DNA of 64,000 nucleotides, from contig CANJLB010000003.1 in NCBI GenBank assembly GCA_947475065.1, forward strand, positions 20,214 to 84,213, read 5' to 3'. Both the position numbers and the translations under genes were made by a program. Under the pieces are notes generated by a model. The model ran no database searches. It saw only the letters and a list, made by a program, of their open reading frames with translations, and was not told the origin of the DNA. The DNA comes from Opitutia bacterium (GTDB taxonomy: Bacteria; Verrucomicrobiota; Verrucomicrobiia; Opitutales; Opitutaceae). Positions 8,689-62,184 of this stretch are shown here, piece after piece (position 1 is the stretch's first letter; every line of letters starts with the position of its first letter).

Positions 8689-8762
8689 TGGTGCGCCGAG
8701 AGGGAATCGAACCCTCCTCTCAAGCTTGGGAAGCTCACGTTCTACCGATGAACTACCGGCGC
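8689..8762 (-). tRNA. tRNA-Gly (anticodon CCC)
   Basis: The rc reads GCGCCGGTAGTTCATCGGTAGAACGTGAGCTTCCCAAGCTTGAGAGGAGGGTTCGATTCCCTCTCGGCGCACCA. It has a 7-bp acceptor stem, D and T arms (GGTTCGATTCC), anticodon loop TTCCCAA and an encoded CCA. Confidence 0.9.
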
Positions 8763-33135: not shown

Positions 33136-34764
33136 TTAAGATGAGGTGGTGCGTGCGGCAAAGGGCAGGCGGCCGTAGAGGCGGCCGAGTTCGCGAAGAT
33201 ACGGCGCGCTTTCCCGATGAAGTTTTTCAAGCTGCCCGGGAGCGTAGCGCCATTGCCAGTTGCCATCGGGTTTGCCCGGCAGATTGAAGCGAGCCTCACT
33301 GCCGAGGCCAAGGCAGTCTTGCAGCGGAATCACCGCGAGGTTGCTCACGGCCGTGTAGGCGGCACGGATGAAATCCCAGCCGACCTCGCCGCCGCTGACG
33401 CGCAGATAACGGCGGAGATGGTCGCGGGTTTTTTCGTCGGACGCCGCATACCAGCCGGGGGTGGTGTCGTTGTCATGGCTTCCGGGATAGATGACGCTGT
33501 TGGCACGGAGATTGTGGGGCAGATAGGCGTTGTCACTGCTGCCGCCAAAAGCGAACTGAAGGATCACCATGCCGGGCAGGCCCGTGGCGTCGCGCAGGGC
33601 GAGCACACCCGGCGTGAGGTCACCAAGATCTTCGGCAATGAGGCGCGCTTCCGGCAGGGCGGCGCGCACAGCGCGGAAGAACGCGAGACCGGGGCCAGGT
33701 TTCCACTGGCCGGTGCGCGCGGTGGGCGCACCGGCGGGGATTGACCAATAGGAGTCGAAGGCCCGGAAATGGTCAATGCGGACAATGTCGCAGAGCGCGA
33801 AGTTGGCGCGCAGGCGGGCGAGCCACCACGAATAATTATCAGCGGCATGGGCGGACCACTCGTAGAGCGGGTTGCCCCAGAGCTGGCCGTCGGCCGAGAA
33901 ATAGTCGGGCGGCACCCCGGCGACAGCGAGCGGGCGGCCGGTCTTTTGGTCGAGCTGGAAAAGCTCGGGACGTGACCATGCGTCGGCGCTGTCGAGAGCG
34001 GCGAAGATGGGCGCGTCACCGATAAGCGCGACTCCGGCGTCGCGCGCCTTGGCGCGCACCTGCGCCCACTGACCGAAGAAGAGGTATTGCACGAAAGCGT
34101 AGGCTTCGGCGCGTTCGAGGAGGGTGGCGGCAAGCGGGCTGGCCTTGGCGCGGGCATAAAAACGGATATCCTCCGGCCAGGTCCACCACGGCTGGCCGTT
34201 CCGGTGATCCTTGAACGCCATGTAGAGCACATAGGCGTCGAGCCAGTGCGCGTGCGCGGCCCGAAACGCGGCAAAATCGCCGTAGGGTTGGGCACCACGT
34301 GCACGAAAGTTTTTATGGGCCCGAAACAGCACGGGCCATTTCGCGGCGTAAAGCCAGCCGTAGTCTACACGGTCGCTGGGCAGTGCGCGCAGCGGCGCAA
34401 GGTCGGCGTCGGTCAGCAACCCGGCGGAGACGAGCGGCCGTAGATCAATGAGGTAGGGGTTACCGGCAAACGCTGAAAAGCATTGGTAAGGCGAGTCGCC
34501 ATACCCAGTTGGCCCGAGCGGGCAGACCTGCCAGTGGCCGATGCCCGCGTCGCGCAGAAATGCGATCCAATTGTCCACCGCGCCATCGAGCACGCCAACG
34601 CCTTGGTCGGACGGAAAGGACGTGGGATGCAGAAGCGCGCCGGCACTTCGTGCGGAGAGCCAGTCGAAAAGTTTTGAGGCGACGTCCGGCGATGTTACAG
34701 GATTCACAGGTAGGGATGGGGTGTAGCCTCCAAGTTTCCCAGAAGCAACCGATTCCTCGATCAA
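33136..34764 (-). CDS. malQ: 4-alpha-glucanotransferase (amylomaltase, GH77)
   Basis: GALLHPTSFPSDQGVGVLDG N-terminal motif and GH77 catalytic regions (GDAPIFAALDSAD, WGNPLYEW). 542 aa. Confidence 0.9.
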   Translation of the reverse strand: MIEESVASGKLGGYTPSLPVNPVTSPDVASKLFDWLSARSAGALLHPTSFPSDQGVGVLDGAVDNWIAFLRDAGIGHWQVCPLGPTGYGDSPYQCFSAFAGNPYLIDLRPLVSAGLLTDADLAPLRALPSDRVDYGWLYAAKWPVLFRAHKNFRARGAQPYGDFAAFRAAHAHWLDAYVLYMAFKDHRNGQPWWTWPEDIRFYARAKASPLAATLLERAEAYAFVQYLFFGQWAQVRAKARDAGVALIGDAPIFAALDSADAWSRPELFQLDQKTGRPLAVAGVPPDYFSADGQLWGNPLYEWSAHAADNYSWWLARLRANFALCDIVRIDHFRAFDSYWSIPAGAPTARTGQWKPGPGLAFFRAVRAALPEARLIAEDLGDLTPGVLALRDATGLPGMVILQFAFGGSSDNAYLPHNLRANSVIYPGSHDNDTTPGWYAASDEKTRDHLRRYLRVSGGEVGWDFIRAAYTAVSNLAVIPLQDCLGLGSEARFNLPGKPDGNWQWRYAPGQLEKLHRESAPYLRELGRLYGRLPFAARTTSS

Positions 34765-40602: not shown

Positions 40603-40723
40603 TAGTGGTATAGTTTTGGTCGGTGGTAGGTTGCGCGCTCGCCGCGCAACTCCGGCGACAGAGGGCAAACGTGGCGTGACGAGCACGCCACCTACCCCGG
40701 AAAATTCAAACTGTACCACTACC
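40603..40723. mobile_element. BIME/MITE-like element (REP-A + REP-B palindromes) flanked by 10-bp direct repeat GGTCGTTGGG
   Basis: The target-site-like duplication lies at 40593-40602 and 40724-40733. Terminal inverted repeats tagtggtatagtttt / aaactgtaccacta. Internal palindromes gtaggttgcgcgctcgccgcgcaac and gtggcgtgacgagcacgccacctac are the same units that flank the RAYT at 60 kb. Confidence 0.65.
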
Positions 40724-41116
40724 GGTCGTTGGGCGATCACCGGGACCGGTTCCAGCTCCTTCAGGCATCCCTTCCCACCGGCGTCTTGAACTCGGCGCTG
40801 AACGTTCGTCTGTGTTTTGGCATGGAGGACTCTGCCCCATCAATCCGTCCCCCGCCTTCGGCAAAGGCTGCGCCGCTACGCTTCCCCTGGCTCACAACAA
40901 CTCACAAAAATCGGCCTGCCCCCTCGGCTTGGCCGCCGCCCGCGCGCGGGCCGCAAGCGGCCTGGCGTCCGTTTTTCGTCACAACGATAGCCCAATGCGA
41001 AAGATTTTCCGAGGGATTCGGGCGGCAGCGGGCGTCTTTGGGGTGAAGCCCATCCACCCGACCACATAAACCTGCATCCTTCTCCCTTCAAAATTTTCAC
41101 CACCCAAGTTGCCTTC

Positions 41117-43376: not shown

Positions 43377-43457
43377 GTCACCCCTGCGCTGGCAGCACGA
43401 AGATGCCCGGCATATCGGCCAGGGCGCGGCACCGCCCAGGTTTGCACAGCGGTTGTC

Positions 43458-43562
43458 CGGTGGTAGGTTGCGCGCTCGCCGCGCAACTCGGGCGACAGAG
43501 GGCAAACGTGGCGTGACGAGCACGCCACCTACCCCGGAAAATTCAAACTGTGCCACCACCGG
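43458..43562. mobile_element. BIME/MITE-like element, second copy (~95% identical core to 40621-40723)
   Basis: cggtggtaggttgcgcgctcgccgcgcaactcgggcgacagagggcaaacgtggcgtgacgagcacgccacctaccccggaaaattcaaactgtgccaccaccgg. Confidence 0.65.
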
Positions 43563-43900
43563 CCGGCGGCGGCACCATCACATGGCCCATGACAGCGGCG
43601 AACAGGGTTTCAGATTATTCAAGAGTGGAGGACCGAATCCTGTCCCGGAAGGCTCGTTGCCCGTACCGCATCAAGTTATGCCAACGTCTGTTAACATTGG
43701 GACGATGGGCCCGATAGCGCCGGGAAGGTTCGGTCCCGGCTCTCCCGAGCCTTTTGGGCTACACTGAGCGGCGCGCCCAGCGGGCACGCCCTACCTTGGG
43801 ATCACCCGATTAGTCTGTAGCTCAGCAAAATCCCCGTCTCCGCAGCCTGAGCCCCTTGGGCGGCTCCCCTGCCCTGCCGGCCATCCAGCCGCCTCACGCC

Positions 43901-46900: not shown

Positions 46901-47350
46901 CAGCCCGCCTTCGGCGACGTGGAAAATGCCCTGCGTGGTGCGGCGGTCGCTGCGCGGGTTGTGCAGCACGCCCTGGCGGACACGGTAGGAGGAGAGGATG
47001 TCGCTTTCGTGACGGTCGCCGTCGGGTGGCAGCGACAGCAGCCGCGCGAGCCCGGGCCGGTCGAGCACGAGCGTGGACGAGGGCAGGCGCGGCACCTCGT
47101 CCTGGCCGTCGAGCTGGTCGTAGAGAAAATTCTGAATGCGCTGGTCCACCGGGCAAAGATGGCGCGCCAGCGCACGGTCTTTTTCCCGGCTCAGCGCGAG
47201 AAAATGATCCACCAGCGGCGCGAGGCCGTCGGTGGTGCCGGAGCTGAACGGTACTCCCGGCTGGCCGATCTCGTGCAGCTTGAGATTCAAATATGCGACC
47301 AGTTGGCCGTCAGCGTCGGGGATGTCAGTTAAAGGGAGGGACGTGGTCAT
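43901..47350 (-). CDS. large conserved hypothetical cytoplasmic protein (1149 aa)
   Basis: Uninterrupted 1149-codon ORF with non-repetitive, globular-looking composition and no signal peptide. It has a P-loop-like CTVSGGGKSE segment. Its size and the absence of any other assignable family raise the possibility of a PPi-type PEP carboxykinase homolog. That is unverified. Confidence 0.6.
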   Translation of the reverse strand: MTTSLPLTDIPDADGQLVAYLNLKLHEIGQPGVPFSSGTTDGLAPLVDHFLALSREKDRALARHLCPVDQRIQNFLYDQLDGQDEVPRLPSSTLVLDRPGLARLLSLPPDGDRHESDILSSYRVRQGVLHNPRSDRRTTQGIFHVAEGGLPIPDDKKAVPAAVYGRLLSAALTPPPELLRLPFTTGAAVSAECFVSLYLRPVVCPEVPGFSPQRAMETRFFVPGALVANLDFIERIFGNAGDPHLPENDAALDPGHWSGHTGCVILAPHLNRFTKRELGLPKWADATPRQRRDGMCWKTEGEPYNDGGAFKLTARDASGVIVTFISDNYFGYCKKEVKTQLSFAANLHGRCEEEHAGGAIVFPSYNLGETFQLATNRPDVNHTFAESLARLGGTADLQPGGWARDTAFPGISYVPADARFDLRTQRIAWRDTTGAEQTLKLLPGTTYVLPSGYKVEMAKPDDSHRWCLRGTTAEGLLCHKPCTVSGGGKSEISKPISDAMFSGPVYVNDLVGDLDAVEAILRRDYSGRFRRPLSQGGRARSILSPERSLGSVVKLLSRSPDYTEEFNAWLATIPRSVRDLVLLLKRLYKPEWGEDWRAQFSVDTINARPGHELKHHTEKLLTHYLRVGYTREGGWRTFTLRSDFYPAEKIQTEDDITASAVAPRSQVPGLPAWVTEPSLKFVHNCEQRLFQRPDDAIVRGYDRRTERDFGSTGHFFSNYEPLSHAAARGIVEDAVGFEAFTEPMQKMFGGFLAAGRPAHLVSPSHPRLVEGKPSKNPRYLQNRPDLEDPRATYLAQTGARLYRRLGASSPAPFPVGSVLMGRRLNPPEPGVRPLCVYGPIHCQEVPEAFMDLIASLTGKSPSTTGAGSEGALTKGPFNALPPIHDLNAAFVSYVLTGLHIFSTAAGWVGPHHRVDHDISLLVPEIWCRMTPSEREPAYLIKEGHLERCADFEHNGRTVLASRLGWRITARFVQTFCGRVFGNPSAVFDEEFLQPEKQDRDVFADGMDNIVATMHTAAGSYFADGSVELAVPPLRALLELMRDGAVECRSASDPAFRALFTRENLLASDWYRARLQAQQRRDVTAFESQARYLEKFLTRPNYTDVAQKLGIRERLAQTLASAKDAASSDYLPRLTGTLGLDPALVAPRTT

Positions 47351-47504
47351 GATGCGGCACAGTTATCCATGGAACAGCTTGCCTAGCAAAGCCCGCACCA
47401 AAACCGACGCAATCATGGAAAGAATGTCCGGACAACATCGCGACAAATTGGCTCGCGCCGCCGCGTGCGGGCATTTTGCTGCTGTCCTGCTTTTCCCCTC
47501 CCCC

Positions 47505-48575
47505 ATGAAACTTGCCTTGTTTTCCTGCCTGCCTCTCCTTCTCGGTGTGGTCGCTCCGCTCCTCGCCGCCGACAACCCTCCGGCTGCCGCCCCGCGTGGC
47601 GCAGCCGCCCCGCCGGCAACCCCTCCGGCCGCCCCACCCTTTCCCGGCAAGCGCACCACCGGCCCCTACGCCCACGGCCCGGATTCGAAGCCGCAGGATG
47701 GGGTGCCCAAAGGTCGCCTGGAAGGACCGTTTGAGTTCAAGAGCCAGATCATTGCCGGCACCGTGCGCCGGTATTGGATTTTTGTCCCGGCCCAATACAC
47801 GCCAGCCCAGGCCGCGTGCCTGCTGGTGTTTCAGGACGGCCAGCGCGCCACCAACCCCGCGCCCGACGCTTCGCTCCGCATCCCGCAGGTAATGGAAAAC
47901 CTCATCGCCAAAAAAGAGATGCCCGTGACCATTGGCCTGTTCATCACGCCGGGCAACCTCAGTGACACCTATCCCGACAACCTCGGAATCGGCAACCCCG
48001 GCAACCGGGCGCAGGAGTATGACGCCGTCAACGACACTTATGCCCGGTTTCTCATCGAGGAGATGCTGCCCGAGCTGAAGAAAAAGTATAACATCACCGA
48101 CGACCCCGAGGGCCGGGTCATCGGCGGCACGAGCAGCGGCGCGATCTGCGCTTTCACCGTCGCGTGGAACCGGCCCGACCAGTTTCGCAAGGTCATCAGC
48201 ATGATCGGCAGCTTTACCTCGATCGGCTGGCGGCCCGCGCAGAACGGCCAGCCGGCCGTGCCGGGCGGCGAAAGCTACCCGACGATGATTCGGAAAACGC
48301 CGCCCAAGCCACTCCGGGTCTTTTTGCAGGACGGCTCCAACGACCTCGACAACGAGCATGGCAACTGGTTTCTCTCCAACCAGCAGATGCTCGCCGCATT
48401 TGCCTATGCCAACGCCAACCCTGCCGGTGTCCGTCGCGGCGGCGGTGCCGGCGGCACCCCGCTCGCCCGCTACGACGTGAGCTACGAATGGGGCGACCAC
48501 ATGCACTCCGATTTGCACGGCGGCACCATCCTGCCCGACATCCTTCGATGGATGTGGCGCGACTACGCGAAGTGA
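47505..48575 (+). CDS. secreted esterase (PF00756-like), paralog 3
   Basis: Signal peptide MKLALFSCLPLLLGVVAPLLA. Esterase core (GGTSSGAICAF nucleophile elbow). Started at the internal Met. Confidence 0.8.
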   Translation: MKLALFSCLPLLLGVVAPLLAADNPPAAAPRGAAAPPATPPAAPPFPGKRTTGPYAHGPDSKPQDGVPKGRLEGPFEFKSQIIAGTVRRYWIFVPAQYTPAQAACLLVFQDGQRATNPAPDASLRIPQVMENLIAKKEMPVTIGLFITPGNLSDTYPDNLGIGNPGNRAQEYDAVNDTYARFLIEEMLPELKKKYNITDDPEGRVIGGTSSGAICAFTVAWNRPDQFRKVISMIGSFTSIGWRPAQNGQPAVPGGESYPTMIRKTPPKPLRVFLQDGSNDLDNEHGNWFLSNQQMLAAFAYANANPAGVRRGGGAGGTPLARYDVSYEWGDHMHSDLHGGTILPDILRWMWRDYAK

Positions 48576-48584
48576 ACTGAGGTT

Positions 48585-48830
48585 TGGTGCTTGGTTCCTA
48601 GTTCGGGATTCCTGGTTTCTTGGTTTCTGAATTACGACCGGATTTTGAATGGCTGATGTCGGCCTGCGGCCTCGGTAACAGAAGCCAGGAAGCCAGGAGG
48701 GAAAAGCTGTTACCGAGCGAAGCGACAGGCAAGTCGCACGCCAAAGCTGAAAGGCTGAAAGCTGAGGCAGGAGGCCAGAGGTCAGAGGCCCGAGGAGGCG
48801 GAGGACGTGGGCATCTTGCGATGCTGTGAG
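48585..48830. repeat. intergenic repeat family A, copy L
   Basis: Modules: cctggtttcttggtttctgaatt (48611-48633); gaatggctgatgtcggcctgcggcctcggtaacagaagccagga (48647-48690) with internal hairpin ctcggtaacag/ctgttaccgag (48671-48717); aaagctgaaaggctgaaagctgag (48743-48766). Confidence 0.55.
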
Positions 48831-48973
48831 GCGAAACTAATCTCATTCTGTCGTCCCCATCCGTGCCTATCCGTGGTTTCAACTGCGTTGTTTAGGTTCA
48901 AAATCGCCTCGCGGCGATGGCGCAAAACGCTTGCGTCCAGGCGGACGGTGTTTTCACATGACCGTTCTCCCTC

Positions 48974-50443
48974 ATGGCATATGACTGGCTCAAAGGTGCG
49001 GCAGATGAATACGACGTGATCGTCATTGGCAGCGGGTTGGGCGGCCTCACCGGCGCCAACGTGCTCGCCAAGGCCGGCCACCGCGTCCTCGTACTGGAGC
49101 ACCACTATCAGTTTGGCGGGCTCGCCACGTGGTTCACCCGCAAGGGCGGGCACACTTTCGACATCTCGTTGCACGGCTTTCCCGCCGGCATGATCAAGTC
49201 CTGCCGCAAATACTGGACGAAGGAGATCGCAGACTCGATCGTGCCGCTGAAGGACATCCGCTTCATCAACCCGCAGATGGACGTGTGGACGACTTTCACG
49301 CGCGAGGACTACACCCGCGTGCTCACCGAGCAGTTCAAGCTCGACCGTGCCGAGGTGGAAAAGTTTTACGATCACCTGCGGGCGATGAATTTTTACGACG
49401 ACAACCGCGAGACCACCGGCGAGATGTTTGAGCGGTTTTTTCCCGGCCGGCCCGACGTCCACCGGCTGCTCATGGAACCCATCGCCTATGCCAACGGCTC
49501 GACGACCGACGACCCGGCGATCACCTATGGCATCGTGTTTTCCAACTTCATGGGCGCGGGCGTCTTCACCTTCCGCGGCGGCTCCGACCTCCTCATCGAA
49601 AAAATGGTCGCTGAGCTGAAAAAGAACGGGGTCGAGCTGCGGAAGAAAGTTCTCGTCGAAAAAATCCTGGTCGAGGAGCACGACGGACGGAAAATCGCCT
49701 GCGGCATCGTGGCCAAGGGCGGGCGCGTCATCCGCGCCAAGGCCGTGCTGTCCAACGCCAGCATCAAAAACACCGTGCTCCGTCTGGCCGGCGAGGAAAG
49801 CTTCCTGCCGGCGCATCCCGGCTATGTGGCGGCGGCCAAAGCCGTGCGCATCAACCACAGCTCCTGCCAGGTCTATCTTGGCATCCGGCAGGGCGAGAGC
49901 ATCCCGCATATCGGCGACCTCGTGTTCACCTCGGCTTCGCCGGCGTTCAGCAGCGCGGCCCTCACGGATTTCCACACCACCAGCCGCACCTTTTCGGTCT
50001 ATTACCCGGATACGCGCCCCGGTTCCGGCCGCTACACCGTCGTCGTCTCGCTGAACAGCAATTACGCGGACTGGACGCGGCTTTCCGAAGCGGATTACGA
50101 ACGGGAGAAGACACGGCTCATTGAAGAGTCCCTCACGGCGCTGGAGGGCTATATCCCCGGGGTGCGCGCAAAGATTGACTGGATGGAGGCGGCGACACCG
50201 CGCACCATTGAACGCTACACAACGCATCTCGGCGGCACGTCGTTCGGCACGAAGTTCGAGGGGCTGAAAGTCTCGATGGATTTGCCCGAAAACCTGCCCG
50301 GCCTGTTCCACGCCGGCAGCGTGGGCATCATCATGTCCGGCTGGCTTGGCACCATCAATTATGGCGTCATCACGGCGAACAAGATTGATCGCCATCTGGC
50401 TGCGCTGCAGCGGATGTCAGGTTTGAATGGCGGAAAAAGCTGA
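48974..50443 (+). CDS. FAD-dependent oxidoreductase of the phytoene desaturase (CrtI)/amine-oxidase family
   Basis: N-terminal dinucleotide fold [29 protein letters not shown]. 489 aa. Confidence 0.85.
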
Positions 50444-50715
50444 GAGCTGAGAGCTGGCGGAAAAGCTGAGAGCTGAAAGGCTGAAAGCTGAAATCGGAGG
50501 CTAGGAATCGGAGGGCAGCGTGCTTGCTTCTTGGTTTCTTGGCTTCTGAATTTTACCGTCTGGATTGGTCGGAGGGATCGCGGAAATCGGAGAAGATAAT
50601 GGCTGATGTCGGCCTTGCGGCCTCGGTGACAGAAGCCAGGAGACCGAAGACGGAGGGTGCATCGCGGAGAAGTGGAACGGCGGAAAAGCTGAGAGGCGAG
50701 ATCGAGATCGGATGA
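50436..50715. repeat. intergenic repeat family A, copy R (same modules as L, begins at the CrtI-like stop codon)
   Basis: gctgagagctgagagctgg...gctgaaaggctgaaagctgaaat; cttggtttcttggcttctgaatttt (50530-50553); aatggctgatgtcggccttgcggcctcggtgacagaagccaggag (50598-50642). Confidence 0.55.
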
Positions 50716-50956
50716 ACGCGCTACGAGCAGACCGCCGACCCAGCTGCAAGAAACTGAGATGCACCCAGCGGGTTCGGCACGCCAGTTTGGCCTTGATCAG
50801 ACTTCGGGCCAAGGCCAGCATCAGCCAACTGAAACGGATGGATCACCGCAGCCTCGACGCCGCCTGGTGCCACGCTGCGGAAGCTTGGCTCGTCTGCTAA
50901 GGCCTGATCACCGTCTCCTCAACCCAAAAAAGTGTTACCCTATTATCCTAAACTTT

Positions 50957-51532
50957 ATGAAATATTTAATCATACTTTTAATTGCAATCAACACGTTATC
51001 TCGAGGCGAGTCCATTTCAAGCAACGATGTTCATGGTGAAGCAGTCCAATCTGGCTCGATTTCATGGAAAATTAGTTCTAGCGCCAATAGTTTATATTTT
51101 CTATACGAACTCAGTTCGGATGATTACTTAATTATATCGATAAGCAATGTTTCAAGCAAACCGGTAACTGTTCCTGCTGAAATGAACATAGTCAAAAGAT
51201 GGGACCAAATATTTTATGACAGACCTTTGCTTTTTTTACATTATAAAAATGGAAATGGAGACACTATCGGTGAATATTCTGTAGTGTCTAGTTTTTTAAT
51301 AAACATGAGCGATCCCAGATCTTCGTTTGTTCTTTTGCCGGGAACAACAATATCAGCGAGATATGATCTTTCGCTTGTTTTTCCCCTTAATCGCAAGAGG
51401 GATTTTTTTTCCAAATCTTCCCTGGACCTTTGTTCATATATGATTGAAGTTCTATTGCCTGATGCAACTTTTAAAAGTCTTGTGAAGCAAGATTCGAAAT
51501 GGAAAAACTTTAGCTCAAGAATAAAGTTATAA
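50957..51532 (+). CDS. hypothetical secreted protein encoded in a ~33% GC islet
   Basis: 192-aa ORF, MKYLIILLIAINTLSRGES signal-like N-terminus, Ser/Asn/Ile-rich. GC ~33% versus ~65% genome-wide. No homology is recognisable by eye. Confidence 0.55.
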   Translation: MKYLIILLIAINTLSRGESISSNDVHGEAVQSGSISWKISSSANSLYFLYELSSDDYLIISISNVSSKPVTVPAEMNIVKRWDQIFYDRPLLFLHYKNGNGDTIGEYSVVSSFLINMSDPRSSFVLLPGTTISARYDLSLVFPLNRKRDFFSKSSLDLCSYMIEVLLPDATFKSLVKQDSKWKNFSSRIKL

Positions 51533-51676
51533 AACTATGTTTTGCGTGTCAAAAATCATATCCCGCCCGAATACAAGCGTTATATTGAAAGATATGCGAA
51601 CCGTTGACGCTGTATTAAAAACGCATTCTTGTCTGTTATCATGCATTAATGTCTCCGCAGGGCGCTATGCGTGAGA

Positions 51677-51865
51677 TCATGGCTGCGACGCGCGGTGCCG
51701 GAGCCGGTCGAGGACGGTGGCCGCGATGATAATGCCGCCGGTGACGATCTCCTGCACCGAGTTGGAAAGGCCGAGCTTGGTGCAGCCTTTGGCCACGACA
51801 CTCATAATTAGTGCGCCGACGAGCGTGCCGACGACAGTGCCCTGGCTGGCGGCGGTTTGCCGAAC
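51677..51865 (-). pseudogene. 3' remnant of a second RbsC-type ABC permease gene
   Basis: Minus-strand translation ...[56 protein letters not shown] matches the C-terminus of RbsC-type permeases and of the intact neighbour (52009-53010). There is no room for the N-terminal ~250 aa. Confidence 0.5.
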
Positions 51866-52008
51866 ACGGGACCCGGGCCGAGACGATGCGCAAGGCTGTG
51901 CGCTTCGGCGTGCCTTCCGGCTCAGTGTGAACGGCCTGACGTTTCCGCCTTCGCCTTCAATGCCGCGCCAAAATCAGGAGCGCCGAGCCGAAGCATGGGC
52001 TGGGTGCG

Positions 52009-53010
52009 TCAGTTTTCACGGCCCTGCCGCAGGCGGTCGAAATAGACGGCCACGATGATCACGAGGCCGATGATGATCTCCTGAAAATAATTCGGCCACT
52101 CCATCGCCTGCGTGCCGGTGCGGAGCACCGCCATAAGCAGCGCGCCGATCATTGAGCCGAGCACCGTGCCCACCCCGCCGTTCAGGCTCGCGCCGCCCAC
52201 GATCACCGCCGCGATGATGTCGAGCTCCAGCCCGACGGCCGCCGTCGGGTCGCCGAGGCTCAAGCGCGAGAGCTGAAACAGCCCGGCGAGGCCAAAGAGG
52301 CACCCCGCCAGCCCATAGATCAGGATTTTCAGCCGCACGGTGGGCAGGCCGCAGAGGCGGGCGGTCTGCTCGTTGGAGCCGATGGCGAAGACGTGCCGGC
52401 CAAACACCGTGCGGCACAGCAGCAGCGCGACGAGCAGGGCGAGCGCCAGCACCACCCACACACCCACCGGCAGGGCCATGCCGTCCGGGTCGGCCGTGGT
52501 CATCCAATCGTCAACCGGCGTGTGCCAGTCCGCGTTGGCGGCCTTTTGCAGCGGGGTCGGGTAGTTGACGGTCTGGTTTTCCGCGAGCCACTTGGCCGTG
52601 CCACGCACGATGCCGAGCGTGCCGAGCGTGACGATGAACGGCACCATCCGCAGCCCGGCGATGAGCGTGCCGTTGAGCAGGCCGATGAGCGCGCCGCCGG
52701 CCACCATCGCCAGGACCGCCACGCCCGCCGGCCAGTCGTGCTGGAGCAGCCGCGCGCCGATGACGCTGGTGAGCGCGATGGTCGAGCCGACCGACAGGTC
52801 AATGCCGCCGCTCACGATGATCATGGTCATGCCCAGCGCGCCGACCGCCACGATGACCGTCTGCGTGAAAATGATCTTGAAGTTGTGGTAGGTGAAAAAA
52901 TTCCCGTGGTGGGTCACGAGCGGGACCGCGATGGAAAAAAACGCGATCACGAGGATCAGCCCGATGAACGGGCCGCCCTTGAGGAGGATTCTTTTCAAGC
53001 TGGCTTTCAT
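52009..53010 (-). CDS. sugar ABC transporter permease (RbsC/XylH-like)
   Basis: Started at MKASLKRILLKGGPFIGL. ~10 TM helices. C-terminal GGASLNGGVGTVLGSMIGALLMAVL...FDRLRQ. Confidence 0.9.
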   Translation of the reverse strand: MKASLKRILLKGGPFIGLILVIAFFSIAVPLVTHHGNFFTYHNFKIIFTQTVIVAVGALGMTMIIVSGGIDLSVGSTIALTSVIGARLLQHDWPAGVAVLAMVAGGALIGLLNGTLIAGLRMVPFIVTLGTLGIVRGTAKWLAENQTVNYPTPLQKAANADWHTPVDDWMTTADPDGMALPVGVWVVLALALLVALLLCRTVFGRHVFAIGSNEQTARLCGLPTVRLKILIYGLAGCLFGLAGLFQLSRLSLGDPTAAVGLELDIIAAVIVGGASLNGGVGTVLGSMIGALLMAVLRTGTQAMEWPNYFQEIIIGLVIIVAVYFDRLRQGREN

Positions 53011-53020
53011 GGGCAAGGGC

Positions 53021-54526
53021 TCACTCGCCGCCGGTGGCGACGCGCATGACACCGGCCTCGGTCCACTCCGCGCGCGGGCGCACGGCGGCCAGCTCGCCCC
53101 GGCACATCACGCCGATGGTGTCGCACAGCCCGAGCAGCTCGGGCAGGTAGGAGCTGACGACGACGACGGCCTTGCCCGACGCGGCGAGGTCGCCGATGAG
53201 CTGGTAAATCTGGGCCTTGCTCCCCACGTCAATGCCGCGCGTCGGCTCGTCGAGCAGGAAAATTTTCGCGGGGTGCTCCAGCAGGCGCGCGAAGGCGACC
53301 TTCTGCTGGTTGCCGCCGGAGAGCTCGCCGATGGGTTGCGCAGCGTCGCGGCATTTCACCCGCAGCTCGTCCACCCAGCGCTGCGCGGTCGCGCGCTGGC
53401 GCCCGCCGCTGATGAAGCCGAAGCGGCCGAAGCGATCCTGTTTCGTGAGCGTCAGGTTGTCGGCGATGGACTGCGAAAGCATCAGCCCCTCCTCCTTGCG
53501 GTTCTCGCTCAGAAAGCCGACGCCCTCCGTCCAACGCGCGCGCGGCGTGGAACGGCCGGCGGGCGCCCCGACGACGCAGACCTCGCCAGCGGCCAGTTCG
53601 TCCAACGAGAAAATCGCGCGCAGCAAATCCGTGCGGCCCGCGCCGATCAGCCCGCCGAGGCCGAAAATCTCGCCCGCCCGCACCTGCAAGGTGGCGCACC
53701 TGAGGCGCGGCGGGCTGACGGCGGCCCTGACCTCCAGCACGACCGCGCCGGTGGCGTGCGCGGCGCGCGGGTAGAGGTCTTTCACCTCGCGGCCGGTCAT
53801 CAGCGTGACGAGGTGGTCGAGCGTCGCGCCCTTCATCTCGCCGGAGCCGACGGTCTCGCCGTCCTTGAGCACGGTGTAGCGGTCGGCGATCCGGCGGCAT
53901 TCCTCCAGAAAATGGCTGATGTAGATGACGCCGACGCCCTGCGCGCGCAGGCGGCCAATGGTGGCGAAGAGCTTTTCGGTGTCGGCCTGCGTGAGGCTGC
54001 TCGTCGGCTCGTCCATGATGAGAATTTTGGGCTGCTTGAGGAGCGCGCGGGCGATCTCGATGACCTGCTGCTCCGCGATGGAAAATGCTCCCGCCGGGCG
54101 GCCGAGGTCGAGCGCCTCGTGGCCGAGCTGCGCAAGCGCGGCGCGGGCGCGCTCGCGGGAGGCCGCACGGTTGATCCAGCCGGCACGGGCGGACTCGTCG
54201 CCGAGCAGGATGTTCTCCTGCGCGCTGAGGTGCAGCGCGAGGTTGAGCTCCTGGTAGATCATGGCGACGCCCTTGAGCCGGGCATCGTGCGGGTTCTCCG
54301 GCAGGTAGGGCCGGCCGGCGAGCTCCATCGAGCCGGCGTCGGCCCGGTGCGCGCCGCTGAGGATTTTCATCAGCGTGCTCTTGCCCGCGCCGTTCTCGCC
54401 GATGAGCGCGTGAACCTCGCCGGGCGCGATGCCGAAGGAAACCCCGCGCAGCGCGTGGGTGGCGCCGAAGCTCTTGCGGATGCCCGCCAGCCGGAGGCTC
54501 GCGGCGGTGGTGAGAGGGTTTGTCAT
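53021..54526 (-). CDS. sugar ABC transporter ATP-binding protein with two NBDs (RbsA/XylG-like)
   Basis: Two Walker A motifs (GENGAGKST; GLIGAGRT), two ABC signatures (LSGGNQQKV etc.), 501 aa. Its ATG start codon lies inside a 33-bp repeat copy. Confidence 0.9.
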   Translation of the reverse strand: MTNPLTTAASLRLAGIRKSFGATHALRGVSFGIAPGEVHALIGENGAGKSTLMKILSGAHRADAGSMELAGRPYLPENPHDARLKGVAMIYQELNLALHLSAQENILLGDESARAGWINRAASRERARAALAQLGHEALDLGRPAGAFSIAEQQVIEIARALLKQPKILIMDEPTSSLTQADTEKLFATIGRLRAQGVGVIYISHFLEECRRIADRYTVLKDGETVGSGEMKGATLDHLVTLMTGREVKDLYPRAAHATGAVVLEVRAAVSPPRLRCATLQVRAGEIFGLGGLIGAGRTDLLRAIFSLDELAAGEVCVVGAPAGRSTPRARWTEGVGFLSENRKEEGLMLSQSIADNLTLTKQDRFGRFGFISGGRQRATAQRWVDELRVKCRDAAQPIGELSGGNQQKVAFARLLEHPAKIFLLDEPTRGIDVGSKAQIYQLIGDLAASGKAVVVVSSYLPELLGLCDTIGVMCRGELAAVRPRAEWTEAGVMRVATGGE

Positions 54527-54553
54527 TCTGAGCGCAGCGAAGAATCCAGTGCG
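54521..54553. repeat. 33-bp repeat copy 1 (tgtcattctgagcgcagcgaagaatccagtgcg)
   Basis: Overlaps both the GIY-YIG stop/C-terminal 10 codons and the ABC ATPase start codon. It is identical to copy 2 at 54893-54925. Confidence 0.8.
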
Positions 54554-54870
54554 GTGTTGGCATCCACTGAAACATCATGCCACCCCTCGGCCAAGTCTTT
54601 CCAAAGGGGATTTTCCTGCTGGATCAGAGCGATCTTCCGATCACGCCGCCAACCCTTCAGCTCGGTTTCACGGCGGATGGCGTTGGTCACATCGCGGAAC
54701 TCCTCAAAATAGACCAGCCGGTGAAGGCCGTAGCGCTTGGCAAAACCATCCTTGGCCCCGGTCTTGTGCTGCCAAGTGCGTCGTTCGAGAGAATTGGTGA
54801 CACCGATGTAAAGCGTGCCGTGCGGCTTGTTGGACAGGATATAGACCCAGTAGCTGCGGTAGGTGGACAT
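54523..54870 (-). CDS. GIY-YIG nuclease family protein (small, standalone)
   Basis: YILSNKPHGTLYIGVTNSLERRTWQH...GWRRDRKIAL is the GIY-YIG catalytic module. 115 aa. It is inserted between the ABC substrate-binding and ATPase genes. Confidence 0.85.
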   Translation of the reverse strand: MSTYRSYWVYILSNKPHGTLYIGVTNSLERRTWQHKTGAKDGFAKRYGLHRLVYFEEFRDVTNAIRRETELKGWRRDRKIALIQQENPLWKDLAEGWHDVSVDANTALDSSLRSE

Positions 54871-54892
54871 CTTGAAAGGGCGGAAAAAGGCA

Positions 54893-54977
54893 TGTCATTC
54901 TGAGCGCAGCGAAGAATCCAGTGCGAATCTCGATGGCGGACATCCAACTGGATTCTTCGCTGCGCTCAGAATGACAA
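54893..54977. repeat. 33-bp repeat copy 2 plus inverted copy 3 forming a ~30-bp-stem hairpin upstream of GIY-YIG
   Basis: tgtcattctgagcgcagcgaagaatccagtgcg (54893-54925), a 22-nt loop, then ctggattcttcgctgcgctcagaatgaca (54948-54977), the perfect reverse complement. Confidence 0.8.
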
Positions 54978-55039
54978 ACTGGGGGGCGTGCGCTCGGATT
55001 ACGCAGGCATTTCGGCTCTCCCAAACGGGCGCGCGCGGG

Positions 55040-58988: not shown

Positions 58989-59783
58989 TCAGGTCGAGGC
59001 CTTCGTCGTGCAGGCACGGTCGAGATGCACATAGCCGCCGTCCACATGGAGGATCTGGCCGGTGGTGTGCGATGAACGGGGCGAAGCGACAAACACCACG
59101 GTGTCGGCTATCTCCTCGGCCGTGGTCATGCGGCGTTCCAGCGGAATCGTGGCTTTGATCGCGTCGAGCGAGGCGGCGGGATCGGGGCGTTTCTCAAGCC
59201 AGCGAGAGTAGAGCGGTGTCATCACCTCGGCGGGCAGCACGCAGTTCACGCGGATGCCGTATTGGGCGAGGTCGAGCGCCCATTCGCGGGTCAGGCCGTT
59301 CATCGCGCCCTTGGCGGCCACATAGCCGCTGGTGCCGCCCTGGCCGGTGACGGAGCACTTGGAGCCGATGTTGATGATGGTGCCCTGGCTGGCGATGAGC
59401 GCGTCGAGCGCGGCCTGCACGAGCACAAAGCACTGGATGATGTTTGTTTCGAGCGACGCGCGGAAATCCGCCACCGGCGCGCGCAGGCCCACGCCGTCGT
59501 TCACGCCGGCGTTGTTCACCAGGCAGTCAATTCGGCCGTGCTTCGCCCACACGGCGGCGACGGCGGCGCGCACGGCGGCCTCGTCAGTCATCTCGCAATG
59601 GAAGGTGTCGGCCTTGCGGCCCGAGGCGGAAATCTCGCCCACGAGCACGGCAGCCTCCTCGCGGTTACGGCCAAAAATGCAGACGGTCGCGCCTTCGGCG
59701 GCAAACGCGCGCGTGATGGCCGCGCCGATACCCTTCGCGCCACCGGTGACGATAACGACCTTGTGATCGAGTTCGAGTTTCAT
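58989..59783 (-). CDS. SDR family oxidoreductase
   Basis: VVIVTGGAKGIGAAI (TGxxxGxG), NNAG, catalytic YVAAK. 264 aa. Confidence 0.9.
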   Translation of the reverse strand: MKLELDHKVVIVTGGAKGIGAAITRAFAAEGATVCIFGRNREEAAVLVGEISASGRKADTFHCEMTDEAAVRAAVAAVWAKHGRIDCLVNNAGVNDGVGLRAPVADFRASLETNIIQCFVLVQAALDALIASQGTIINIGSKCSVTGQGGTSGYVAAKGAMNGLTREWALDLAQYGIRVNCVLPAEVMTPLYSRWLEKRPDPAASLDAIKATIPLERRMTTAEEIADTVVFVASPRSSHTTGQILHVDGGYVHLDRACTTKAST

Positions 59784-59890
59784 TGCGGGAAAGTGGGGCC
59801 ACGCACACGGCCCGTGGCAAGCCGGATGACTGCCGTGTGATCAGTCCCGCGTGGCAACATGCGGAGAGCGCAACCGACGCGGAATTCCCG

Positions 59891-60035
59891 GAGTTGCGCG
59901 ACGAACGCGCAACCTACACGGATCGGACGTAGGTGGCGTGTTTGCCGCGCCTCGTTTGTCCTGGCGTAGGTTGCGCGCTGGTCGCGCAACGTTTTTCCCC
60001 AGGCCCCGGAGTTGCGCGACGAGCGCGCAACCTAC
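59891..60035. repeat. REP array (three palindromic units in alternating orientation) 10 bp downstream of the RAYT stop
   Basis: gagttgcgcgacgaacgcgcaacctac (59891-59917), gtaggttgcgcgctggtcgcgcaac (59966-59990), gagttgcgcgacgagcgcgcaacctac (60009-60035). Confidence 0.8.
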
Positions 60036-60044
60036 ACGGACCAA

Positions 60045-60563
60045 TCACCCCAGCCACTCGGGGAATGGCTGGCCGTTGTCGGTCAGGTCGCGTAACCACT
60101 CCCAGTCTTCGTCGCGGCAGTAAAAATATGGCCACGTTTCCCCCTCCGCCACCAGCCCTGCCCGGGGCGGGTTCAGCCAGAGGTAGCGGATCACGCTCTC
60201 CGCCGAATCCTCCGGGCGGAGCCGATGGTCGTAGAAATTCTCCTGCCAGCCGGCGCCCTGCGGGCGCAGGAGCGCCTGCGTCTTGGTCTTGAGCCGCGCC
60301 ATGGCCTGCGAGAGCGTGAGCCGTGCGCCCAGCGTGAAAAACAGGTGCGCGTGGTCGGGCATCACGGTCAGGCAGCGCAGCGCCCACGCGCCGTCGGCGG
60401 TCAGGCGGTGCGTCTCGGCGAGCAGAGCGGGGGCGATGCCGGGGACGAGCACGGGCAGGCGCGGTTGAACGCAGACCGTCACGAAATAGTCCGCGTGCGG
60501 CACAGAGGCGCGGCCCCGGCGCAAGGCGTTGGGTCCAGTATTCCGTTTCGGCGGCGGGGCCAT
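60045..60563 (-). mobile_element. REP-associated tyrosine transposase (RAYT, IS200/IS605 TnpA-like)
   Basis: 172 aa from the internal Met. HxH motif in MPDHAHLFF and catalytic Tyr in ENFYDHRL. It is flanked on both sides by REP palindrome arrays, the defining RAYT context. Confidence 0.8.
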
Positions 60564-60575
60564 GCGGGGATTGTG

Positions 60576-60702
60576 GTAGGTTGCGCGCTCGTCGCGCAAC
60601 GTTTGGTTGTCCGGCGTAGCAACAAGGTGGCGTGCTCGTCGCGCCACGGTTGTCATCCGCCGACCCCTGATCCCTGAGTTGCGCGACGAGCGCGCAACCT
60701 AC
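60576..60702. repeat. REP array upstream of the RAYT (REP-A, REP-B variant, REP-A inverted)
   Basis: gtaggttgcgcgctcgtcgcgcaac (60576-60600), gtggcgtgctcgtcgcgccac (60627-60647), gagttgcgcgacgagcgcgcaacctac (60676-60702). The first two lie within the ORF-track N-terminal extension of the RAYT ORF. Confidence 0.8.
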
Positions 60703-60725
60703 TCCGGAGTCCGGGCCAGTTCAGC

Positions 60726-61742: not shown

Positions 61743-61809
61743 AGTCAGACAGTAGAAGCCGCCATTCAGGGTAAGAAGAGCAAGCTCAATGGTGTTTAGC
61801 CGGGCAATC

Positions 61810-61950
61810 CGGAAGGCTTCGCGGCTTCTGTTACCGAGGCCACAAGGCCGACATCAGCCATTCGTCAGAACAGAACATTTAAGAAGGCTTCCTCCTAAAA
61901 ACATCCGTCTGCCTCCGCTTTCATCTCTAATTTTCAGCTCTCAGCGTGGT
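61810..61950. repeat. intergenic repeat family A, copy 3 (reverse orientation)
   Basis: ccgaggccacaaggccgacatcagccattc (61834-61863) is the rc of gaatggctgatgtcggccttgtggcctcgg. aattttcagctctcagcg (~61929-61946) is the rc of cgctgagagctgaaaatt. Confidence 0.5.
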
Positions 61951-62184
61951 GTCTGGCCAGTTGCAGCATGATTTCCATCAACCATGGCAAGGGGCGGCAA
62001 GAATCGGCAATAATATCCATCCTCAAGCTCGATCTTTCCATTGGAATGGCTTTGCGTTGCTGTCCAAATTCTCGCCCCTTTATCCATTTACCAGTCCGCT
62101 GAGCTTATCCGCAAAGCATTGGGGAAAAATTGCTGGTGAACTCAACCCTTACCCTTTAGTCATTCGGCTTCACCTGTTCACCCC

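Follow-up and report, generated by a model that had tools for sequence, protein, structure and literature searches.

Orphan genes (ORFans), as described in Escherichia coli, are typically short and AT-rich (PMC3514957), and integrative elements have been identified as a major source of both recently acquired genes and orphans (PMC2718499). The present analysis concerns an orphan gene found in a 64,000-nucleotide stretch of DNA (hereafter the window) from Opitutia bacterium, an uncultured freshwater verrucomicrobium of the family Opitutaceae (GenBank assembly GCA_947475065.1, contig CANJLB010000003.1, positions 20,214 to 84,213 of the forward strand). The gene, located at 50957..51532 on the plus strand of the window, lies in an AT-rich islet of 729 bp (50926..51654) between a FAD oxidoreductase gene and the terminal gene of a sugar ABC operon. 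We read this islet as a foreign block from a low-GC source that carries an intact gene for a putatively exported envelope protein and is probably the left-over cargo of a mobile element, and we put the probability of this reading at roughly 0.65.

Several described systems invite comparison with the islet. Like the AT-rich ORFans of E. coli, its gene is short, AT-richer than its host, confined to one lineage and without homologues, and it likewise sits in a variable junction beside the insertion site of a mobile element. However, the contrast here is extreme, amounting to 30 GC points with no amelioration, and the gene is isolated, i.e., without phage or integrative backbone, integrase, tRNA or att repeats. 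Phage morons and the cargo of decayed prophages offer a second parallel: the islet is also a single self-contained foreign gene set between unrelated host genes, and it encodes a small, putatively exported protein, as morons do. On the other hand, it has neither flanking phage or transposon sequence nor a promoter-terminator pair, and its best match among the PHROGs families has an E-value of only 0.04. Integron cassettes, which consist of a promoterless orphan open reading frame (ORF) followed by a 3′ attC site, share with the islet the layout of a ~580-bp ORF and a ~120-bp non-coding tail, but the tail of the islet contains no attC-like RYYYAAC/GTTRRRY palindrome (by eye) and no stable fold. 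An integron cassette was rejected, as no attC-like site was seen by eye and the window holds neither an integron integrase nor a cassette array. Finally, exported proteins with Ig-like β-sandwich domains, exemplified by a protein designated P0005, resemble the orphan protein in having a signal peptide and alternating hydrophobic and polar strands, six of which are predicted in the orphan. Nevertheless, the similarity to P0005 (residues 97-150 of the orphan) is not significant given the repeats and composition involved, and the C-terminal third of the orphan protein is, in low-confidence models, predicted to be helical, unlike plain Ig-like domains.

The islet belongs to a kind of feature that is already well known and is unusual mainly in degree: its 30-point GC drop is un-ameliorated, it has no relative among ~15 billion proteins and it has no vector backbone. 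As an instance of a foreign orphan gene without amelioration in an uncultured freshwater verrucomicrobium, it is both clean and extreme. It is usable as a strain marker and illustrates one way in which orphans come into high-GC genomes, in this case alone, vectorless, and at an apparent rearrangement junction that is also a transposon target.

The AT-rich block and its gene

Along the window, GC content in 300-bp windows falls to 0.33-0.40 at ~50950-51700, against 0.54-0.74 on either side. The minimum of 0.333 lies 5.9 standard deviations (SD) under the window mean (0.638, SD 0.052), the second-lowest 300-bp value anywhere in the 64 kb is 0.467, and no 1-kb bin besides the block falls below 0.56. 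A maximum-likelihood fit with two change points delimits the block to 50926-51654 (729 bp), where the GC content is 0.347 in surroundings of ~0.64, and both edges are sharp. The block comprises a 31-bp 5′ leader (GC 0.26), the ORF, which takes up 79% of its length, and, on the same strand, a 122-bp non-coding 3′ tail at 51533..51654 (GC 0.37) that is devoid of terminator, attC-like site and stable fold (z = 0.28). A scan of 48000-53000 against Rfam yielded nothing relevant. In 500-bp windows, the GC content of the block drops by 0.30 relative to the locus mean, whereas the largest drop in 100 related high-GC loci is 0.166. As no comparable AT-rich islet was found in ~1.2 Mb of related loci, such islets appear rare in freshwater Opitutaceae.

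The ORF extends from an ATG at 50957 to a TAA at 51530-51532 and comprises 191 codons plus the stop. When the block was simulated 20,000 times with a first-order Markov model, an open frame of at least 191 codons arose in 0.015% of the runs (P ~1.5e-4), i.e., the ORF is far longer than chance allows. Its GC contents at the first, second and third codon positions (GC1, GC2 and GC3) are 0.36, 0.37, and 0.31, respectively, and the host genes have GC3 values of 0.80-0.92 in 10 of 11 cases, the remaining one, a GIY-YIG gene, standing at 0.69. Since synonymous and non-coding sites are AT-rich as well, the foreign signature is not explained by amino-acid content alone. An alternative start, the ATG at 50759, is a frequent choice of gene callers and would yield a product of 257 aa. 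The resulting 66-codon upstream extension lies inside GC-rich repeat DNA and has a GC3 of 0.52, unlike host genes; it is probably untranslated, and for these reasons the ATG at 50957 is the credible start. The orphan gene has no Shine-Dalgarno motif, and none was found within 25 nt upstream of the start in any of the 15 host genes inspected (0/15). Initiation in the host lineage thus appears to be Shine-Dalgarno-independent, and because host genes likewise lack the motif, translation initiation presents no obvious barrier for the orphan gene. The AT-rich leader also contains a −10-like hexamer, TATTAT, at 50941-50946.

The orphan protein contains 17.3% Ser, 8.9% Ile and 5.2% Asn, compared with 5.0, 4.9, and 2.6% in nine host proteins. 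Its sole strongly hydrophobic stretch covers residues 1-14 (hydropathy 2.5 over residues 1-11). Inspection together with the hydropathy scan predicts a Sec signal peptide of 17 residues (MKYLIILLIAINTLSRG, 50957..51007, plus strand), in which Lys2 would form the n-region and Y3-L14 the core (12 residues), with Ser at −3, Gly at −1, and cleavage before Glu18. By inspection, its three regions (n, h and c) and the small residues at positions −3 and −1 agree with the criteria for signal peptidase I (SPase I). The N-terminus thus resembles a Sec/SPase I signal peptide, and its removal would leave a mature protein of 174 aa. A lipoprotein processed by signal peptidase II was ruled out, as there is no lipobox and the only Cys is residue 159.

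These results bear out much of an initial annotation of this DNA, which had described a low-GC block at 50900-51660, flanked by a copy of a dispersed repeat and a truncated permease remnant and encoding a single secreted protein rich in Ser, Asn and Ile. The change points and the GC and codon-usage profiles agree with that description of the block, there is one intact long ORF, the repeat copy lies on its left and the permease remnant on its right, and both the biased composition and the signal-like N-terminus were recovered. The length originally given, 192 aa, corresponds to 191 aa plus the stop codon.

Distribution of the islet and its gene

Homology searches returned only the gene's own copies. 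A word-indexed search of 5.8 billion clusters retrieved a single cluster, 99-100% identical to the orphan protein, and an exhaustive phmmer search of 1.84 billion representatives retrieved the same cluster together with P0005, a 1227-aa protein, at an E-value of 2e-4. P0005 is a surface protein with five near-identical Ig-like repeats and a Ser/Thr/Ile-rich sequence, and its E-value is inflated because of these repeats and of the composition that it shares with the orphan; with an alignment of 54 ungapped aa (residues 97-150) at 26-28% identity, it was rejected as a homologue. Pfam, NCBIfam, PHROGs and PADLOC were searched at E-values up to 10. The orphan protein had no match in Pfam, NCBIfam, PADLOC or the sequences of the Protein Data Bank (PDB), and only sub-threshold matches in PHROGs (E 0.04 and 0.09). 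Searches by tblastn against phages and a scan of viral contigs found nothing, and a tblastn match on a plasmid to a Selenomonas peptidase gene (E = 0.05) was treated as chance. Across these searches, the orphan gene is an ORFan without detectable homologue outside its lineage.

Within that lineage, the exact orphan protein occurs on more than 20 contigs drawn from several assembly series of the European Nucleotide Archive (ENA), two assemblers, and four NCBI metagenome-assembled genomes (MAGs). At least 11 displayed contigs, some of which measure 69-119 kb, contain both islet junctions at 99.9-100% identity, and 12 more were collapsed as similar. None of the contigs that run across the site, at least 11 in number, lacks the islet, which is thus fixed in the sampled population, and the identity of the junctions across samples, studies and assemblers excludes an assembly artefact. 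The only variant seen in the islet is an indel in the T8 tract of the ORF (51403..51410, plus strand), which is reduced to T5 in one sample (L001) with the in-frame loss of one Phe (RDFFSK to RDFSK).

Beyond the population, the relatives of the flanking oxidoreductase all belong to the Opitutaceae/Opitutales (Verrucomicrobiota) and are mostly freshwater MAGs. No homologue of the islet was found in 80 Opitutales oxidoreductase loci and 80 permease loci, and in none of these 80 + 80 loci are the two flanking genes linked to each other. Instead, sister lineages, the closest of which came to light through the protein database, carry other genes beside both flanking genes. In the sister whose oxidoreductase is 94% identical (L181), a DUF4337 gene lies downstream and nucleotide homology to the window ends at 50412. 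DUF4337 was rejected as the ancestral neighbour, since it gave 0 matches in 80 loci. In the sisters whose permeases are 86% and 82% identical, a Trypsin_2 or an S-methyltransferase gene lies downstream, and homology ends at 52019 and 51997, around the permease stop. As homology to the sisters ends at the flanking genes, the whole junction between them (50444-52008) is private to this lineage. Scans of genome collections and metagenomes recovered only relatives of at most 88% and at most 74% identity, respectively, with other synteny.

One gene of the window bears on the history of the junction. In 25 of the 80 oxidoreductase loci (L017-L083), the oxidoreductase is followed after ~3.3 kb by an oppositely oriented homologue of the gene at 33136-34764, and this neighbour is apparently ancestral. 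In the window, the gene itself lies 14 kb upstream of the oxidoreductase. This displacement implies a rearrangement breakpoint just after the oxidoreductase in this lineage, and suggests that an inversion or a translocation had one of its breakpoints at the islet junction.

Taken together, base composition and distribution make horizontal acquisition of the islet well supported, and the acquisition would be later than the split from the nearest sampled sister lineages. The gene's orphan status, claimed by the initial annotation, holds in cluster, family, PDB, phage, plasmid and viral searches alike, and a check of relatives for a same-locus homologue with native codon usage found none. The same annotation spoke of a clear recent horizontal acquisition. 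The horizontal part stands, whereas "recent" has two grounds only: the block is un-ameliorated, and it is missing from lineages whose flanking proteins are 82-94% identical.

Origin of the islet and competing explanations

Mobile DNA enters the junction next to the islet. A transposon target, TAGG, lies at 50502..50505, 59 bp past the oxidoreductase stop, with 420 bp between it and the left edge of the islet. This target is vacant in the window and occupied in sample ERZ27277814, and contigs of ERZ28612979 break there. In ERZ27277814, one contig follows the window to 50505 and then runs into foreign DNA, and a second enters the window at 50502. TAGG is the 4-bp target duplication, and the transposon ends are 26-bp imperfect inverted repeats (TGAAGAKTGCCACGRGGTTTGAGAAA). 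At least 34 kb of the transposon is visible (parts in L173 11533-18307 and L003 1-9743). Its left end encodes a TniB-like AAA ATPase, an unannotated ORF of 735 aa, a helix-turn-helix (HTH) protein and a Y-family polymerase, and its right end a large serine recombinase, two ParB/RepB proteins, a DUF87/FtsK ATPase, and SIR2-like and DUF499 proteins. The 735-aa ORF may be the transposase, and the SIR2-like protein, DUF87 ATPase, DUF499 protein and Y-family polymerase are defence-like cargo. Because the insertion is polymorphic in the population, the junction receives mobile DNA today.

What we infer of the expression, export, function and vector of the orphan gene can be set out as follows. The gene would be transcribed from the AT-rich leader with its TATTAT hexamer or, alternatively, by read-through of the oxidoreductase gene, which has the same orientation and lies 513 bp upstream, and translation would start without a Shine-Dalgarno site, as in host genes. 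The 17-residue signal peptide would route the pre-protein via Sec and be cut after Gly17, and the mature protein of 174 aa, Ser-rich and predicted to be mostly β-strand, would have an accessory envelope role, either periplasmic or at the outer surface. As for its source, the gene would most likely be moron-type cargo of a phage or integrative element whose backbone has since been lost. If the gene is indeed expressed and its product exported, it would represent a protein family without relatives among ~15 billion sequences, and would indicate that GC-rich Opitutaceae exchange genes with an AT-rich mobile element or phage that has so far escaped sampling.

A number of results weigh against this reading. 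At the level of the gene, the flat GC content across codon positions amounts to weaker coding periodicity than is typical of a well-adapted AT-rich gene, promoter-like and terminator-like matches in a scan of the islet do not rise above shuffled background, and the population is clonal, with 0 single-nucleotide polymorphisms (SNPs) in the islet that could reveal selection on the ORF. At the level of the protein, single-sequence AlphaFold2 models of the full-length and mature forms, which suggest six strands followed by three C-terminal helices, are of low confidence (pLDDT 42 and 43). With regard to a vector, no target duplication and no terminal direct or inverted repeats were found around 50926/51654, no recombinase or integrase belongs to the islet, no relics of the ends of the neighbouring transposon occur in the window, and no tRNA lies near the islet, the only one in the window being at 8689. 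A clean empty site, i.e., the same junction without the islet, was found in none of the relatives recovered. Lastly, all searches for a donor lineage gave self-matches only and no homologue in another taxon; as neither donor nor homologue was found, transfer is argued from composition and phylogenetic absence only. An insertion sequence or miniature inverted-repeat transposable element (MITE) was separately ruled out as the identity of the islet, for want of terminal inverted repeats with a target duplication.

Among the competing explanations, the one that fares best, while still unlikely, is that the islet is foreign but inert, its ORF being intact only through very recent arrival, and that the gene, unexpressed or functionless, will decay. 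Only 31 bp of foreign DNA precede the start codon, so that the donor promoter was probably left behind, and this agrees with promoter and terminator signals at shuffled background. Codon usage is maximally mismatched to the host, the junction is full of debris such as the permease fragment and repeats, and there is no polymorphism that could reveal purifying selection. However, the ORF is complete from signal peptide through stop, the islet is fixed in all of the contigs (at least 11) that span it, the sole indel is in frame despite the slippage-prone T8 tract in which it lies, and the gene has the same strand as the upstream oxidoreductase, making read-through transcription possible.

The reading of the islet as mobile-element cargo encoding an exported envelope protein can also be carried further. 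In its boldest form, which we hold to be improbable, the orphan would be the first member of an exported envelope family, possibly with a new fold, delivered by an unsampled AT-rich phage or mobile element of high-GC freshwater Verrucomicrobia and retained for a benefit at the cell surface, with the junction acting as a landing pad on which such cargo gathers. Such a benefit may consist of, e.g., the blocking of phage receptors (superinfection exclusion) or the inhibition of external enzymes.

The initial annotation had proposed an effector, immunity or lectin-like protein. A small protein bearing a signal peptide would suit a secreted effector, immunity or lectin-like binding protein from a conflict system, as would the predicted strands, which suggest a β-rich protein, and the weak gap-free match between the orphan and an Ig-like repeat in P0005 (54 aa, 26-28% identity). 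Orphan status is, moreover, common among immunity proteins. Against this stand the absence of any PADLOC, Pfam, NCBIfam or PDB match, the sub-threshold PHROGs matches, and the lack of any toxin, secretion-system or partner gene within 10 kb on either side, where the neighbours serve metabolism and transport (oxidoreductase, esterase, ABC sugar operon); the orphan gene is also alone in its islet. Besides the inflated E-value of P0005, a Foldseek search of the PDB with the low-confidence model gave nothing beyond an E-value of 0.075 and a TM-score of 0.29. With no family match, no partner gene and models too poor for fold assignment, the proposal finds no support, and we regard such a function as very unlikely.

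That the gene is native or newly born, with its AT-richness due to amino-acid content or local mutation bias, has in its favour that no donor can be named and that the protein is rich in residues with AT-rich codons (Ser, Ile, Asn, Lys, Tyr, Phe). Yet a GC3 of 0.31 is far from the 0.80-0.92 of 10 of the 11 host genes, the non-coding leader (0.26) and tail (0.37) are AT-rich too, the boundaries are sharp, the GC drop of 0.30 is unmatched in 100 related high-GC loci, and a GC-rich genome offers no such AT-rich raw material for a new gene, all of which makes a local origin highly implausible. An assembly chimera or contamination, with low-GC reads misjoined into a high-GC contig, can be dismissed: short contigs do end within the islet at 50983, 51141, 51161, and 51215, and in one 1.4-kb contig (L011) the first 77 nt are unrelated and meet the window at 50802, but the contig ends are scattered, as from a drop in coverage of AT-rich DNA and not from one false join, and at least 11 displayed contigs, which differ in sample, study and assembler and include those of 69-119 kb, agree in every base at both junctions.

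The surrounding junction and neighbouring repeats

The islet is one component of a 1.56-kb junction (50444-52008) between two convergent genes, the FAD oxidoreductase on the left (48974-50443, plus strand) and the ABC sugar permease that ends the sugar ABC operon on the right (52009-53010, minus strand). From left to right, it contains a repeat region and the islet, followed by a permease fragment and a spacer. The repeat region (50444..50925) is native-type DNA with a GC content of 0.59 that contains dispersed repeat material and short GCTGAGAG/AATCGGAGG motifs. Its 40-nt repeat core occupies 50598-50637, with a partial copy in inverted orientation at 50810-50827, and the region does not fold better than its shuffles (z −1.7). 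Other copies of this dispersed intergenic repeat bring its distribution in the window to 48576-48800, 50519-50720, and 61790-61960 (minus strand), with partial copies at 59597-59621 and, inverted, at 50810-50827. The core is near-invariant over 40 nt (AATGGCTGATGTCGGCCTTGCGGCCTCGGTAACAGAAGCC), contains a GGCC-TTGC-GGCC hairpin, recurs at ~48648 and ~61823, and is embedded in degenerate GCTGAGAG and GGTTTCTTGG motifs. The family has no match in Rfam and is probably the one that the initial annotation called repeat-A.

To the right of the islet, a permease pseudogene fragment at 51677..51853 (minus strand, GC 0.65) preserves the end of an ABC sugar permease of the BPD_transp_2 type, namely its last ~55 aa and its stop codon. 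Compared by eye, it matches the C-terminus of the neighbouring intact permease at ~45% identity, and it is 42-52% identical to the permeases of relatives; given these low identities it is a relic of a different, paralogous gene and not of a recent duplication. The GC-rich spacer that follows (51854..52008) runs from the permease fragment to the stop of the intact permease and has no homologue in the sister lineages.

The contig L011 mentioned above joins the window within the repeat region. Its positions 1-77 are a coding-looking sequence (FPTAGYIYGKQGIRDAYHTGRGLLT), unrelated to the window, that looks GyrA-like, and the join at 50802 is probably chimeric, formed at a short shared k-mer.

On the other side of the oxidoreductase, an esterase gene (47505-48575) and the repeat copy that follows it (together 47321-48921) are missing in the 94% sister, where the PPi-type PEPCK gene and the oxidoreductase lie only 324 bp apart. 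The esterase region is a second lineage-specific gain beside the oxidoreductase, in this case with host-like GC content.

Within the ABC operon, the GIY-YIG gene with a GC3 of 0.69 (115 aa, 54523-54870, minus strand) is located between the binding-protein and ATPase genes, and its region (54518-54979) is bracketed by direct and inverted repeats of 30-40 nt (TGTCATTCTGAGCGCAGCGAAGAATCCAGT). The gene occupies the same position in some distant relatives (L109, L110, L114) and is missing from the 82% sister, which suggests that it is selfish and mobile.

Farther away, a gene for a Y1-transposase of the REP-associated, RAYT-like type (60045-60656, minus strand) is flanked by palindromic REP-like repeats (GTAGGTTGCGCGCTCGCCGCGCAAC) in the region 59879-60705. 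More REP-like copies occur at 40613-40728 and 43450-43565, including a 113-nt pair, 95% identical, at 40616 and 43453.

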